A stretch of DNA of 64,000 bases from an uncultured SAR86 cluster bacterium (lineage in GTDB: Bacteria; Pseudomonadota; Gammaproteobacteria; Magnimaribacterales; AG-339-G14): contig CACEOL010000005.1 of assembly GCA_902561325.1 (NCBI GenBank), forward strand, positions 2,220-66,219, given 5' to 3'. How positions within the stretch are numbered: the stretch's first letter is position 1; every line of letters starts with the position of its first letter. A program made the position numbers and the translations under genes. The notes beneath the pieces are model-generated. The model had not been told where the DNA came from, did not search any database, and saw only the letters and a program-made list of their open reading frames with translations. This document shows positions 3,376 to 9,244 of the stretch, piece by piece.

Positions 3376-5022
3376 ATGCTTAAGAAGACGCTGTACTCAC
3401 TGATTGCAATTGTTTTTATTGGGGTTATTGCTTGGGAATACAAAGTCAATATCTTAATTTGGTCCTTACCAAAGATGATGAATTTTCTTAGCCCGATTCA
3501 AGAAAACATCCCAACATCTTGGTCTATTGGGCCAGAAGAAGCAGCGAAGGACGACCGACCTAACATAATTTTAATTCTTGCTGATGATATGGGCTACAAC
3601 GATATTTCGCTCCACAATGGTGGAGCTGCTGATGGTTCATTGCAAACGCCACATATTGATGAATTGGCTACAAGTGGTGTTTGGTTTTCAAGAGGTTATG
3701 CTGCTAATGCGACTTGTGCTCCATCTCGAGCATCAATCATGACAGGCAAATATGCTACAAGATTTGGTTATGAATTTACTCCAGTACCCGATCCGGCAAG
3801 ATTTATTCTCACTTGGTTGGTTGAAGAAGACGATGCTGAATTGAGAGGGAGAATTGATCGAGAAGTCGCAAATAACTTACCTTCTTATTTCGATATGGGC
3901 ATGCCAACTGAACAAATTACTATAGCTGAAGTTCTTAAGGATGCAGGATATTACACCGCTCACATTGGTAAATGGCATTTAGGAATTACCAATGGCATGG
4001 ATCCTCAAAGTCAGGGCTTTGTTGACTCTTTGTCGCTTGCAGGGAGTTCTTATCTTTCTGAGAATGACCCTGAAGTTGTAAATGCCAAATTTGATACAAG
4101 CATTGATAAGATGGTTTGGTCTTCCTCTCAGTATGCGGCTAGATTTAATGGCAGCAAACCTTTTGCTCCTGATAAATACGTCACGGATTACTATACCGAT
4201 GAAGCATTGAAAGTGATTGAAAATAACCAGAACCGACCCTTTTTTTTATACTTAAGTCATTGGGCAATTCATAATCCATTACAAGCTTTAAGATCTGATG
4301 TTGAGCAAATGCAACATATGTCCGGCCATAACCTTCAAGTATATTCAGGCATGATTCGAGCACTTGATCGTAGTGTTGGCAAAATTATAGAAAAACTTAA
4401 AGAACTAGAAATCTATGGGAAAACCTTAATCATATTTACCAGCGATAACGGCGGTGCTAACTACATCGAATTAGAAGATATCAATAAACCTTATCGTGGC
4501 TGGAAAATATCTTTTTTTGATGGCGGTATCAGAGTGCCTTTTATTTTTAGTTGGCCTGATCGCATTGAAGCTGGTGGAAAATTCGACGATGCTATTCACC
4601 ACTTCGATATTTTTTCTACGATTGCTGCAGCGGCAAATGTAGAAATAAACAATAAACTCGTTATTGACGGAGTAAATTTACTACCTTTCATTAATAAAGA
4701 GACTTTTAATAAACCTCATGAAACTCTTTTTTGGCGCTCTGGCAATCACCAATCGGTTCTACATAAAAACTGGAAATATTTAATTAGCATTAAAGAAAAT
4801 GCTCGATGGTTGTTTGATACTTCTTCGGATCCTTTTGAAAAAAATAATGTTATTGATAAATATCCAAAACAGGCCCAGGTTATTGAAAGCTTATTGGTTG
4901 AATTCAACGATAAGCAAAGTGATCCTCTTTTCCCGTCAGCTTTTGAAGCCCCAATAATGATTGATAAATATGACGGACAAGAATATGAAGCAGGGGACGA
5001 ATATATTTACTGGTCTAATTAA
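3376..5022 (+). CDS. Cys-type formylglycine sulfatase with N-terminal membrane anchor
   Basis: ADDMG, CAPSRASIMTG (CxPxR), GKWHLG, SDNG motifs; hydrophobic N-terminus. Confidence 0.92.
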   Translation: MLKKTLYSLIAIVFIGVIAWEYKVNILIWSLPKMMNFLSPIQENIPTSWSIGPEEAAKDDRPNIILILADDMGYNDISLHNGGAADGSLQTPHIDELATSGVWFSRGYAANATCAPSRASIMTGKYATRFGYEFTPVPDPARFILTWLVEEDDAELRGRIDREVANNLPSYFDMGMPTEQITIAEVLKDAGYYTAHIGKWHLGITNGMDPQSQGFVDSLSLAGSSYLSENDPEVVNAKFDTSIDKMVWSSSQYAARFNGSKPFAPDKYVTDYYTDEALKVIENNQNRPFFLYLSHWAIHNPLQALRSDVEQMQHMSGHNLQVYSGMIRALDRSVGKIIEKLKELEIYGKTLIIFTSDNGGANYIELEDINKPYRGWKISFFDGGIRVPFIFSWPDRIEAGGKFDDAIHHFDIFSTIAAAANVEINNKLVIDGVNLLPFINKETFNKPHETLFWRSGNHQSVLHKNWKYLISIKENARWLFDTSSDPFEKNNVIDKYPKQAQVIESLLVEFNDKQSDPLFPSAFEAPIMIDKYDGQEYEAGDEYIYWSN

Positions 5023-5097: not shown

Positions 5098-7119
5098 TTA
5101 GAAGTTAAAGTTCAATTTGATACCGAAGTTTCGACCAGCTAAAGGCACTTCATTTTTTACAAAAGAAGTGTGATTTCTAGCTTTCTCGTCCATAAGGTTT
5201 CTTCCAAAAACAGATAAAACTAGTTCTTCGTCACTACCGATAGCAAAAGATCTTCTGATATCGAAATCGACCATGGTGTAGCCATCCGTCAAAGATTCAC
5301 CAAAACCAATATCATCTTCTTTTTGTATATCCATAACTTTGATGTCATAAGTAACATCCTCTTGTTCTAGAGCAAAACGATAGACGTTTTTAATTGGCGT
5401 AATTCTTGGAACATTTCCACCACTAGAAAAAGTTCCTACAACTTCGTCTCTACCATAAGAGATTACAAAATCTCCATTATTGGTTGTAAAAGATCTTCCA
5501 ACTTCTACTTCATATCCATTGAAGTCAGCATCAGCTTGCTTGTAATCTACATTTGGCCTGCCACTGGTAACTGTTCCTCTATTTTTAATGTAAATGTAGT
5601 TATCTACTGCATTTGCATAAACTGAGGCATTCACAAAGTAGCCATCATTTTCATAGCTCACGCTAAAATCTAAATTATTGGACCTTTCGGACTCTAAATT
5701 TACGCTACCAAACTCGTTTCTAGCTGCTGCTAAATGAGTACCATTCATAAACAGTTCTATTTCAGATGGAGCTCTTGCAACACTTGAAATACCTAGAGTT
5801 AGACCAACATTATTGTCTAAGTCCCAACCCATTGTAAGCGCAGTACTCAAATCACTTTCGCTAATATCATGAAGAGTGTTGCCAATTGCACCATCTCGAT
5901 TAACCTGATCCAAACGAACACCAAAATCTAGGTCTACAACGTCTAGCTCCCTGCAGATGAAGTAGCCAACACTTAACATTTGAGAATCTACTGGTTTCAT
6001 GAACGCTTCCTCTCCAATAATCGCCACATCTTCTTGGCTGACATTGATTGTCACATTCTGTCTGTTACCACCATCTTGGTTTCCGATATCAAGCTTCATA
6101 CCGAATTCGAAAGATTCGTTAGTGAAAGTTGTTGGACCATGTTCTTCCTCTTCTTCCTCTCCTTCTTCTTCGTGATGCAACTCTACATGACCTTCAGTAA
6201 AGGAATAATCATTTGCTTGAAAGAAATAGCTAAGTTTATCTAACCCACTTAGATTGGTCACAGCTCCTTCTATGGTCACATTTTCCGAAGAAGTATCTGC
6301 TTGAATTCTTTCTTCATGCTCCTCTTCTCCTTCATGCTCTTCTTCTTCACCATGGAAAGCAATACCGTAAGTATTTTCAATCTTGCCTAAAGAAAAACCA
6401 AAATAACCCCAGTCTTCAATTGTTGAAAGACCAAATTTTTGACTGAAAGTTGCTAAATCAGAATTTGCTAAAGTTGTTTCTGCTTCAGGCGAACCTTCGT
6501 GAATGATGGCACCGCTTGGAACCTCGTGACTTTCAAAGTTTACTTCTTTTAAAGCATAAGTCAGATTTATACCACCTACATTGCCTTTATAAGAAAAACT
6601 TCCGGTAGTTCCCATGTTTGCTGTTTGTCTTTCAAGACCTATATTAAAGTCATTACCTTCAAAGTCTTTGTTGGCAATAGTTTGATCAACGATATTGATG
6701 ATTCCACCCATTGTTCCATTGGAATATAACAAGGATGAAGGGCCACGAACCACTTCGATTTGTTGTAAGTCGTTCACATCGACATCATTTAAATGGTCAG
6801 AACCTAGGCCAGAGACATCTCTGACTAACTTACCGTTAGATAGAATTCTCACTCTAGTCCCGCCCATTCCTCTGATAATTGGTTGTCCAACTCCAGGACC
6901 AAAGCCGGATGAATTTACTCCTAGCAAATAGTCAATGCTGTCTCCTAGATTTGTTGAACCTGTATAATTAATGTCATCTCCAGTGATAACAAATATTGGT
7001 GAATCTATTTCAGCAAGTGTTGCTCCTCCAAGAGATGAAGTAACAATGACTTCCTCATCCATTGCATAAAGCACATTTAGAAATGCGAAACACAAAATAA
7101 AATACAAAGATTTTTTCAT
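5098..7119 (-). CDS. TonB-dependent outer-membrane receptor, ZnuD-like (probable metal uptake)
   Basis: Signal peptide, TonB-box-like EEVIVTS, plug motif IEVVRGPSSLLY, two His/Glu-rich loops, C-terminal Phe; SD AGGAGG. Confidence 0.88.
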   Translation of the reverse strand: MKKSLYFILCFAFLNVLYAMDEEVIVTSSLGGATLAEIDSPIFVITGDDINYTGSTNLGDSIDYLLGVNSSGFGPGVGQPIIRGMGGTRVRILSNGKLVRDVSGLGSDHLNDVDVNDLQQIEVVRGPSSLLYSNGTMGGIINIVDQTIANKDFEGNDFNIGLERQTANMGTTGSFSYKGNVGGINLTYALKEVNFESHEVPSGAIIHEGSPEAETTLANSDLATFSQKFGLSTIEDWGYFGFSLGKIENTYGIAFHGEEEEHEGEEEHEERIQADTSSENVTIEGAVTNLSGLDKLSYFFQANDYSFTEGHVELHHEEEGEEEEEEHGPTTFTNESFEFGMKLDIGNQDGGNRQNVTINVSQEDVAIIGEEAFMKPVDSQMLSVGYFICRELDVVDLDFGVRLDQVNRDGAIGNTLHDISESDLSTALTMGWDLDNNVGLTLGISSVARAPSEIELFMNGTHLAAARNEFGSVNLESERSNNLDFSVSYENDGYFVNASVYANAVDNYIYIKNRGTVTSGRPNVDYKQADADFNGYEVEVGRSFTTNNGDFVISYGRDEVVGTFSSGGNVPRITPIKNVYRFALEQEDVTYDIKVMDIQKEDDIGFGESLTDGYTMVDFDIRRSFAIGSDEELVLSVFGRNLMDEKARNHTSFVKNEVPLAGRNFGIKLNFNF
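6133..6357 (-). repeat. Two low-complexity His/Glu-coding tracts in the receptor, one with an imperfect 18-nt tandem repeat
   Basis: FHGEEEEHEGEEEHEER and GHVELHHEEEGEEEEEEHGP; ttcatgctcctcttctcc / ttcatgctcttcttcttc at 6313-6348. Confidence 0.7.
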
Positions 7120-7173
7120 AATCTCCTCCTAAGAAATTAAAAAATTAAAATTAAAAAAGTTTAAAAGTTGGTC

Positions 7174-7461
7174 TTATTGAGGCGGGGCTCTAGAAAGAAA
7201 GTAAGACTGATTCTTTTTTTCATAAAAACTGATTTGTTCAATTTCTATGTTGTCAGAGAAAAAAAGATGATATGAAGTAAATTCAAGTTCATTACTTACT
7301 TGATCGCCGATACAAGAATGACATTCATTTTGAAATTCAAATTCATGATGCTCGACATCATGAGTTTCGTGAGAATGATCATGAGAAAGCTCTCCAAGTA
7401 AGCCACTTGAAGCTAAAACCAAGCTAAAAAGAATTGCTAGTTTGTTTCCTTTCCCTAACAC
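7174..7461 (-). CDS. Putative metal-sensing ribosome-arrest leader peptide (DUF2946/CruR-like architecture)
   Basis: Basic plus hydrophobic N-terminus, HDHSHETHDVEHH, CHSC, C-terminal SRAPPQ; ends 54 nt upstream of the receptor; GTG start. Confidence 0.75.
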   Translation of the reverse strand: MLGKGNKLAILFSLVLASSGLLGELSHDHSHETHDVEHHEFEFQNECHSCIGDQVSNELEFTSYHLFFSDNIEIEQISFYEKKNQSYFLSRAPPQ

Positions 7462-7473
7462 GCGAGAGATTGT

Positions 7474-7479
7474 ATTATA
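7474..7479 (-). promoter_or_regulatory. -10 box for the uORF-receptor transcript
   Basis: Perfect TATAAT on the minus strand 12 nt before the GTG; no good -35. Confidence 0.45.
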
Positions 7480-7524: not shown

Positions 7525-8112
7525 ATGAGATTGTCATTTATTTTATTAACAGCTTTTTTTATTTCGTGTTCAGAAATTTCTCATAATTCAGCAGAGTGGC
7601 AAATTAAAACTTATTCTTCTGCTGCACCTTCATACATTGGAGATTTTGCTACTGTGATAGGCGGTAACGGAGAAATATTGAGAGAAGGTACCAACGGCTG
7701 GATTTGCCAACAAGGCAATCCAAGACCTTATCCAAAAGAAGGATGGAAATCTGCTCATGAAGCTATGCCAGCATGTCACGATGAAGAAGGGATGAAATGG
7801 ATGATGGCTTATGCTGAAGGAAAGGCTCCTAATTTAACCAGAGACACATATATGTGGATGCTTCATGGCGATGTTGGTGAAGACAATTTAGTACCTGGTG
7901 TTTTAAACAAAAGTGATTCAACCCCGGGACAATGGATTGAATCAGGTCCACACTTAATGCTGATGCCAAAAGATCCAAAAAGCCTGAAAAATTTCACTAC
8001 TGATTTCACAAATGGAGAACCTTATGTCATGTTTCCAGGAACTGTTTACGCTCATTTGATGATTCCTGTGGAAGGTTATTACGATTACCAGCCTTCAGCT
8101 AAACCAGACTAA
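7525..8112 (+). CDS. Hypothetical lipoprotein, His/Met/Cys-rich
   Basis: Lipobox-like FISC; motifs NGWIC, PACHD, WMLHGD, GPHLM, YAHLMIP. Confidence 0.7.
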   Translation: MRLSFILLTAFFISCSEISHNSAEWQIKTYSSAAPSYIGDFATVIGGNGEILREGTNGWICQQGNPRPYPKEGWKSAHEAMPACHDEEGMKWMMAYAEGKAPNLTRDTYMWMLHGDVGEDNLVPGVLNKSDSTPGQWIESGPHLMLMPKDPKSLKNFTTDFTNGEPYVMFPGTVYAHLMIPVEGYYDYQPSAKPD

Positions 8113-8113
8113 C

Positions 8114-9244
8114 TTATAGAGAGCCAAAGAAGTTTCTTAGTTCTTGGACGTAAAGTTCTGGCTTTTCCAAAGCAGCAAAGTGCCCGCCTGAATCTAAAAC
8201 ATTGTAATACTTTAGGTTGCTGTAGCGTTTTTTAAGCCAACGTTCAGATGCTTTGAAAATCTCTTTAGGATAGATACTTACTCCAGTGGGTGTTTTAACT
8301 TCTCCGCCATTGAATTCGCCAAAACTTTCCCAATATAATCTTGCGGAGGATGTTGCAGTTTCCGTTAACCAATAAAACATAACATTAGTCAGCAACTCAT
8401 CTCTTGATACGGCATTTTCTGGATGGCCGTTACAATCAGTCCATTGGTAAAACTTTTCTAGAATCCAGGCTGCTTGACCGACAGGCGAATCTGTCAGTCC
8501 ATAGCCTAAAGTTTGCGGTCTTGTGGATTGTTGTTTGGAATAGCCAGAGTCCCACTCTTGGTAGAATTGAAATCCCGCTAGAGCGTTTTGCTCAAATTCA
8601 GTTAAATCATTCATGGTATCCATATCAGGAGAAACCACTGCCATATTTAAATGAATAGCTTCACAGTCAGGATCTTGTGTGCCAAGAGCAGTGGTAACCG
8701 CAGAACCCCAGTCACCACCTTGAGCAAAATATTTTTTGTAACCAAGGTCTTTCATGAGTTGAGAAAAAGTATCTGCAATCTTTTCTACACCAAACCCTGG
8801 TTTTGTGGGTTTTCCTGAAAATCCAAATCCAGGTAATGAGGGTGTTACCACATGAAAAGCATCCTTAGGATCTCCACCATCAATTGTCGGATCTGCTAAA
8901 GGTTTAATCACTTTTAGAAATTCCACAATGGAACCTGGCCAACCATGAGTGATGATGAGAGGTTTGGCTTCTTTGTGAGGAGAGGGGTAATGAATAAAAT
9001 GAATATCCAAATCATTTATATTTGTTATGAATTGAGGAAATTCATTAATGTTTTTTTCATTTTTTTTCCAGTCATAATCATTCACCCAATATTCGTGAAT
9101 TTCTTTCATGTAAGACAAAGGAATGCCTTGAGTCCAATCGTCCGGCGTCTCTTTTTCAGGCCATCTTGTGAGTTCCAAACGTTTTTTTAAATCTTCAAGC
9201 TTACTTTCAGGAATATCTATTGAGAAATCTTTTATTTTTGACAT
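8114..9244 (-). CDS. Epoxide hydrolase (EHN-type alpha/beta hydrolase)
   Basis: HGWPGS, GGDWG nucleophile, GGHFAALE; N-terminal DLKKRL..TRWP. Confidence 0.9.
   Translation of the reverse strand: MSKIKDFSIDIPESKLEDLKKRLELTRWPEKETPDDWTQGIPLSYMKEIHEYWVNDYDWKKNEKNINEFPQFITNINDLDIHFIHYPSPHKEAKPLIITHGWPGSIVEFLKVIKPLADPTIDGGDPKDAFHVVTPSLPGFGFSGKPTKPGFGVEKIADTFSQLMKDLGYKKYFAQGGDWGSAVTTALGTQDPDCEAIHLNMAVVSPDMDTMNDLTEFEQNALAGFQFYQEWDSGYSKQQSTRPQTLGYGLTDSPVGQAAWILEKFYQWTDCNGHPENAVSRDELLTNVMFYWLTETATSSARLYWESFGEFNGGEVKTPTGVSIYPKEIFKASERWLKKRYSNLKYYNVLDSGGHFAALEKPELYVQELRNFFGSL

Follow-up and report, generated by a model that had tools for sequence, protein, structure and literature searches.

Metal-sensing arrest leaders known so far respond, as far as the accessible text of the reports extends, to copper, and act either via Rho (CruR) or through an intergenic stem-loop (CutF). 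CruR of Bordetella pertussis (Bp2923; DUF2946, PF11162) precedes the gene for the TonB transporter BfrG, with a fixed spacing between its CxxC and RAPP motifs (PMC9426467), and its arrest has been shown (PMC12992588). In the CutF-cutO pair of Rhodobacter capsulatus, copper induces an exported metal-sensing leader to stall, which opens an intergenic stem-loop over the next Shine-Dalgarno sequence (SD) and leads to expression of a detoxifying oxidase (bioRxiv 2022.11.11.516240; 2025.02.05.636593). The accessible account of SecM-secA and uDF_RQH_Enterobacterales-secDF2 has RAGP/RAPP-type arrest freeing a sequestered SD, with stem mutations that derepress; these leaders lack a metal motif, sense protein export and have Sec genes as their targets (PMC10987492). 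Small RAPP/RGPP ORFs 5' of TonB-dependent receptors are widespread in Gram-negative bacteria, and the accessible part of the survey that describes them gives no RNA mechanism, zinc link or codon-SD covariation for the class (PMC12992588). In the open-access literature we found neither a zinc-responsive RAPP leader nor codon-SD covariation at RAPP; supplementary lists may hold these leaders.

The leader considered here is of the same class, in the same neighbourhood. It lies in the window, the 64,000-nucleotide stretch of SAR86 DNA that was analysed, and it shares with CruR the form of a small, probably exported leader with a CxxC, a C-terminal RAPP and a fixed spacing between them, placed before a TonB-dependent importer. 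Stalling would turn the receptor on and metal would turn it off, a sign that we infer for the SAR86 leader from its importer target and from the analogy with CruR. The two differ in that CruR, in the accessible text, is a copper sensor that acts by way of Rho over a gap of 162 nt, whereas here the gap is 35-65 nt and pairing to the SD is encoded in codons; the spacing is 45 residues in CruR against 40-42 here, and here the receptor is ZnuD-like and the leader has no DUF2946 match. Compared with what is described for CutF, the masking strand lies in the leader's last codons rather than between the genes, and the gene controlled encodes an importer, probably with the opposite sign of regulation.

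The gene anatomy could be read directly from the minus strand. The leader ORF (7461-7174) encodes 95 residues from a GTG and is separated by 54 nt from the gene for a TonB-dependent receptor (5098..7119; 673 residues, with His/Glu-rich loops), for which ZnuD is the top NCBIfam match. The neighbours are a sulfatase gene (3376-5022) and an epoxide hydrolase gene (8114-9244), and beside the leader a divergent gene (7525-8112, plus strand) encodes a lipoprotein-like protein of 195 residues without a Pfam match. The genome measures 1.17 Mb at 34% GC and 87% completeness, and the locus is present in marine runs. In two of four RNA runs, all from one study, one contig extends across leader and receptor, such contigs showing neither the strand nor a single transcript; in the other two the RNA contigs end within the repetitive spacer. 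The hexamer TATAAT at 7474..7479 (minus strand), absent from the promoter scan's list, lies 12 nt 5' of the leader GTG with no SD between, and is likely a -10 element, which would leave the leader a very short 5' UTR. Leader starts in most genera, and in the window (7479-7461), mostly lack an SD and often have a TATAAT-like hexamer 6-12 nt 5', which suggests that the leader transcripts of most genera are leaderless or nearly so. Inside the leader's His-rich codons there is a terminator-like hairpin (7363-7343, minus strand) of nine pairs, followed by a U-rich run.

The N-terminus of the leader protein is hydrophobic; then come a His-rich stretch with an invariant His27, the motif C47-x-x-C50 (CHSC) and the end R91-A-P-P-Q-stop. 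In the alignment the N-terminus is basic and then hydrophobic, an export signal judged by inspection and likely a Sec signal; two homologs (L058 and L196) have ATG where the window's leader has GTG. An alignment of 33 leaders shows one His and one Cys without variation. The CxxC is found in 112 of 127 leaders and in all 112 stands 41-43 residues before the Arg (40-42 intervening). A single Cys of this motif is left in 14 full-length leaders, including all those of genus g16 (L017, L031, L032, L091, L110, L117, L120, L127, L136, L139, L142, L146, L148 and L149). The C-terminal motif is RAPP in 116 leaders, QAPP in 10 and RDPP in one. QAPP replaces RAPP in 10/10 leaders of genus g17 (L094, L096, L097, L100, L101, L104, L124, L126, L144 and L147) and RDPP ends one leader of genus g7 (L114), with the codon-SD pairing mostly retained in these non-RAPP leaders. 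In the window the RAPP codons read AGA GCC CCG CCU (7180..7191, minus strand). From the geometry given in the accessible text of PMC10951233 and PMC12992588, the stall is predicted with the P-site on CCG (7185-7183) and the A-site on CCU. The predicted P-site codon is CCG in 27/31 members of genus g1; CCG is rare, accounting for 7% of the genome's Pro codons.

Searches of Pfam and NCBIfam with the window's leader gave no family match. At gathering score, DUF2946 (PF11162) matched neither this leader, nor nine relatives, nor anything else in its own genome; among 129 leader homologs it gave three weak matches (best E 0.0029). A leader profile aligned with one DUF2946 protein over the RAPP end only, at 18% probability, and an Atlas hit to a DUF2946 cluster at 0.92 serves as a lead only. 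A second Atlas lead, DUF2607, was dropped with one weak match in 201 genomes and in 1/129 homologs. With E values of at most 0.001, the leader profile search itself added 218 clusters. Of the CruR-type traits, the CxxC and the C-terminal RAPP are present; the spacing falls outside 45 residues with a tolerance of 1-2. The CutF-like class comprises, in the accessible description, proteins of <150 residues with PP in the last 15 residues, a signal peptide and a same-strand neighbour within <=1000 nt (bioRxiv 2022.11.11.516240); the window's leader falls within these bounds with 95 residues, PP at 93-94 and a gap of 54 nt, its signal peptide being judged by inspection. By its sequence, the leader is CruR/CutF-like in architecture and lies outside DUF2946 by score and by spacing.

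Of 61 relatives, 55 have a ZnuD-like receptor, as do 126 of the 154 genomes of the order. We examined 134 receptor loci: 131 have the leader, one (in genome G059) lacks it and two are cut by contig ends, so that the leader is present in 131/132 loci with upstream DNA, one place having been fetched twice. Three identical junctions and one containing an N were left out, and the remaining 127 junctions (126 genomes, 20 genera) were analysed. Across these, the distance from leader stop to receptor ATG is 35-65 nt and that from the P-site to the SD 41-67 nt. Two genomes each carry two leader-receptor copies (L008 and L057 in G003; L011 and L056 in G008); the receptor of L008 has two internal TGA stops, and the receptor of another genome (L026 in G007) is split into three pieces.

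The link to zinc comes from the receptor and from its regulation in relatives. ZnuD (NF038289) is the best NCBIfam match of the receptor (E 1.6e-72), ahead of the other matches among 25 families by 41 orders of magnitude, with a score of 245 bits that does not reach the curated cut-off of 950. A Zur-like gene is present in 9 of the 154 genomes, and for all five Zur-like proteins tested Zur was the best family at a score below its cut-off. G059, the genome with the sole leaderless receptor locus (L039), has a Zur-like gene, and about 40 nt 5' of the receptor, flanked by the hexamers TTGACT and TTTAAT at a spacing of 17 nt, lies a Zur box (L191:7480-7510) that agrees by eye at 16/19 positions with the gammaproteobacterial box in the accessible text of PMC3516566. 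This receptor is flanked 5' by an unrelated gene and 3' by a tyrosine recombinase gene. In three genomes (G094-G096) that have both Zur and the leader, a site resembling the box lies where the leader begins (15, 14 and 14 of 19), and in G094 a Zur box with one mismatch stands immediately 5' of the leader; G086 has Zur and the leader and no Zur box over the leader. Zur-box scores at leaders range over 10-15 of 19 and are confounded by the -10 element. One-mismatch counts were no higher than those of a reversed-pattern control, and we therefore used only exact matches and position. Exact Zur-type boxes also occur 5' of a MerC-like membrane gene in G127, G128 and G059 (L234, L235, L239, L240 and L223), and in G127 and G128 before a different TonB receptor, with no ZnuD-like receptor match there. 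Read from sequence, the boxes tie the ZnuD-like receptor to zinc control in relatives and stop short of proving the leader's own ligand; zinc as the metal is suggested by the ZnuD-like receptor together with G059, where a Zur box stands in place of the leader. The description of the window's genome as one without Fur and Zur was rejected for Fur, since Fur occurs in 138/154 genomes and the assembly is 87% complete.

Across the order the leader's last codons change with the receptor SD, the third bases of the Ala and Pro codons following its fifth base. Where the SD is GGAGU, the Ala codon is GCU in 31/33 loci and Pro1 is CCU in 0/33; where it is GGAGG, Pro1 is CCU in 45/80, against 1/47 with other SDs (genome usage is 0.42 for GCU and 0.44 for CCU). 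Either GCU-CC or CCU-CC supplies a single CUCC, and the two are combined in just 1 of 126 cases. The switch recurs inside genus g18 and between sister groups, and counting by genus-by-SD units, which are themselves related, gave Fisher p values of 0.003 and 0.006. Over the 20 genera the predicted duplex energy was -11.1 kcal/mol with the own SD context and -9.3 +/- 0.3 kcal/mol with swapped ones; no genus permutation of SD contexts did as well in 200,000, and none when permuted within families. In four genera (g9, g10, g20 and g21) the own SD paired no better than those of others by energy permutation. Measured against synonymous recodings, only 4/53 loci did better at p<0.05, in part because Ala-Pro-Pro is encoded by C-rich codons in any case. 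Tree-aware tests were set aside as proof of covariation, there being too few independent events for significance: SD base against codon had two independent pairs on supported branches and GCU against CCU eight pairs (median p 0.125), both underpowered. That the last codons covary with the receptor SD across the order is, on these comparisons, well supported, and since they change together a stalled ribosome would likely unmask the SD.

The position of the complementary strand differs between groups. Measured as the partner of the first SD G relative to the P-site, the register is +4 in 57 loci, +1 in 37, +11 in 13, -8 in 12 and scattered in eight, and the predicted masking strand lies within -6..+15 of the P-site in 108/127. 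There are four anti-SD registers, in the Pro-Pro codons, in the Arg-Ala-Pro codons, in the last two codons with the stop, and, specific to the window's genus, in F-L-S-R. More distant receptors, from a Halieaceae MAG and a metagenome contig, have a helix of 10 to 11 pairs in the +1 register with different letters.

At the window junction the earlier note had proposed a helix, here H1, of 11 contiguous pairs including four G:U, and direct reading of the minus strand bears this out: 7200-7190, UUUCUUUCUAG, which comprises the F-L-S codons and the first two bases of the RAPP Arg codon, is complementary to 7132-7122, UUAGGAGGAGA. The receptor SD does lie inside the 3' arm (7122..7132), as GGAGG at 7129-7125, the complement of the 16S tail in this genome. 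The intervening spacer (7133..7173, minus strand), described there as almost pure U/A with little competing structure, is indeed A/U-rich, with U-runs split by AA, and over the 127 junctions the spacers are 91% A+U (G 1.9%, C 7%); competing structure, by contrast, is available, as two further helices pair with the SD region. H2 joins the last Pro, Gln, the stop and 2 nt (7172..7182, minus strand), which would sit in the A-site and entry channel of the stalled ribosome, to 7134-7130 and 7128-7125. H3 is a local hairpin (7119..7139, minus strand; 7139-7131 with 7127-7119) that reaches from the last nine spacer bases to the 3' half of the SD and the A of the AUG. It leaves AGG open in its loop, which H1 and H2 close in part or fully, and H1 and H2 may thus work by concealing the site that the 30S subunit contacts first.

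Folding energies are predictions throughout. Taken alone at 37 C, the helices come to -6.2 (H1), -6.2 (H2) and -4.7 kcal/mol (H3; -6.2 with its extension). The check by folding without the ribosome went against the earlier note, H1 being the minimum-energy fold in 0/9 settings of segment length and temperature; the best fold of the 131-nt segment is H2. The pair probability of the H1 core was 0.47, 0.16 and 0.06 at 37 C and 0.11, 0.09 and 0.01 at 20 C (131-, 201- and 431-nt segments), and <0.01 for 431 nt at 10 C. With an outcome that varies so with segment and temperature, single-sequence folding was rejected as proof of H1. The junction region folds more weakly than its shuffles (z +1.95). 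A full 11-nt partner of the SD stretch occurs in the last 60 nt of 11/1035 ORFs of the genome, an equally good SD duplex in 16/143 control SD genes, and synonymous recoding of the leader end matches the H1 duplex with p=0.35; at the window locus alone, H1 is weak and only modestly above chance.

A stalled ribosome was modelled by forcing its footprint unpaired at 20 C. With the footprint at RAP-P, opening of the SD was eased by a predicted median of 5.3 kcal/mol over the 127 junctions (>1.5 in 107, >4 in 80), against medians of -0.02 at 23 control junctions and 0.07 for 120 other genes of the own genome (>4 in 12/143), part of the effect being built in, since RAPP codons are C-rich under any codon choice. 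The cost of opening the SD exceeded the synonymous null in 103/127 loci. Outside the window's genus the gain was about 5 kcal/mol with the P-site <=4 codons from Pro1, 2.3 at +6 and about zero from -6 upstream; within that genus a sliding-footprint scan gave no peak at RAPP. At the window junction the predicted gain comes to 0.8 kcal/mol (20 C) or about 1.1 kcal/mol (37 C), and among the members of the window's genus it runs from none to 5.4 kcal/mol, being <=0.1 in 3-4 of 15. The proposal that a stall at RAP-P would free the SD is well supported for the leader family, by covariation over 20 genera and by the footprint effect, and is weak for the F-L-S-R helix from which it was drawn. Protection of mRNA by the ribosome is less sure behind the E-site. 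Since the H1 arm (7190..7200) lies at -15..-5 from the P-site, only part of it would be covered with certainty, where most had been claimed.

Within the window's genus, to which 16 metagenome members, mostly near copies, were added, the -8 register is found in 11/15 members, and a further member has -9; outside the genus it occurs at a single locus, counting -8 only. H1 is the best SD-covering duplex in 12/15. The homolog check proposed for it gave conservation without covariation: over 15 members 94% of cells are paired, against 50-79% when H1 is slid to other positions, and two-sided changes number zero, H1 doing no better than its shuffle control. Of the SD contexts of 20 genera, the one that suits the H1 arm of the window's genus best is its own (rank 1). 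The Leu(-2) codon is CUU or CUC in 12/13 of the window's genus, whereas in genus g6, with the same GGAGGA and the +4 register, it is UUA or CUA in 14/14; the sole exception (L013, CUA) breaks H1 and is the sole member to gain CCU-CCU. In four members without the extra U (L004, L006, L008 and L009), H1 grows to 13 pairs with a predicted gain of 1.8-5.4 kcal/mol. Synonymous changes at F, L and S (1, 3 and 2, against control means of 0.8, 4.7 and 2.9) are not clearly fewer. The genus consensus fold is H3, 97% paired with one two-sided change; H2 is 85% paired and never covaries. H1 as the main repressor in this genus is plausible and unproven, at about even odds, and of the forms that a likely SD-masking switch takes it is the weakest and has the least proof.

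With moderate confidence, we favour the following explanation for the locus as a whole, in which stalling, the metal and the direction are drawn from CruR and CutF and from the type of receptor. When metal, probably zinc, is scarce, the 95-codon leader would likely stall its own ribosome at RAP-P; the ribosome would then cover leader codons able to pair with the receptor SD, and the receptor would be made only during the stall. As suggested by CruR, metal binding to the His/CxxC segment (41-43 residues ahead of the Arg) would pull the chain from its arrest, and with the ribosome's departure the SD would be masked again. In the window, H1 likely shares the masking with H2 over a constant local hairpin, H3, which makes the predicted switch shallow there. 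A bolder version, which we think less likely than not, is that a zinc arrest switch replaced Zur across this order of streamlined marine Gammaproteobacteria, and that a single anti-SD word in synonymous codons slid between the four registers, the window's genus then having the fourth, behind-the-ribosome register. An arrest leader of zinc type would show how metal uptake can be controlled in very small marine genomes without a dedicated repressor. The four registers, each with a known distance to the P-site, offer a natural test of how far a stalled ribosome blocks mRNA pairing on both sides, in which H1 matters mainly as the edge case, and they suggest that the choice among synonymous codons at an arrest motif can serve regulation.

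We think it unlikely, if somewhat less so than the other alternatives, that the family switch is real and H1 incidental in this genus, with repression by H2, or with a decayed switch in which H3 sets a constant level. The equal -6.2 kcal/mol of H1, H2 and extended H3, the position of H2 in the A-site and entry channel and as best 131-nt fold, and the consensus status of H3, which holds the only two-sided change, all suit that reading, as do the 0.8 kcal/mol of the window switch and the p=0.35 for H1, which reflects the naturally U/C-rich Phe-Leu-Ser codons. Yet H2 is the helix with only 85% pairing and no covariation, and H3 starts 46 nt beyond the P-site, so that a stalled ribosome cannot open it; the gain of 1.8-5.4 kcal/mol from the 13-pair H1 of four members, and the contrast in Leu codons with g6 and L013, favour H1.

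Control of the CruR type, in which a stall blocks Rho, release lets Rho end transcription ahead of the receptor and SD pairing plays a secondary part, seems to us improbable. The mechanism has been shown for CruR, likewise ahead of a TonB receptor, according to the accessible text (PMC9426467), the genome has rho, and the leader end and spacer are weakly folded with a C-over-G excess of 0.17 against an average of 0.07; but the gap of 35-65 nt is short against 162 nt for CruR, the spacer is 7% C, and Rho leaves the codon-SD covariation unexplained, even if polarity could still follow from blocked translation of the receptor. Slightly less probable again is the same RNA switch with another input or sign, the leader sensing export or Ni, Co, Cu or Mn, or stalling upon metal binding like CutF. 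CutF stalls on binding Cu, and His-rich CutF-like proteins stand by Ni/Co genes in the accessible text (bioRxiv 2022.11.11.516240). The missed ZnuD cut-off, the second Cys missing from 14 full-length leaders and the lack of a Zur box over the G086 leader point the same way, whereas the Zur boxes before the G059 receptor and, with one mismatch, before the G094 leader argue against it. A metal importer is, moreover, expected to be on at low metal. Set beside these alternatives, the preferred reading remains a stall at RAP-P that would unmask the receptor SD when metal is scarce.

Two minor observations concern the sequence around the SD. In several genera UUUCAU just 5' of the SD can pair with AUGAAA to form a hairpin with the SD in its loop, a counterpart of H3 (loci including L016-L020, L022, L025, L034 and L046). 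The window's spacer (7167-7136) is built of units of a U-run and AA whose number varies among relatives (L007, L010 and L012), L010 having one unit extra.
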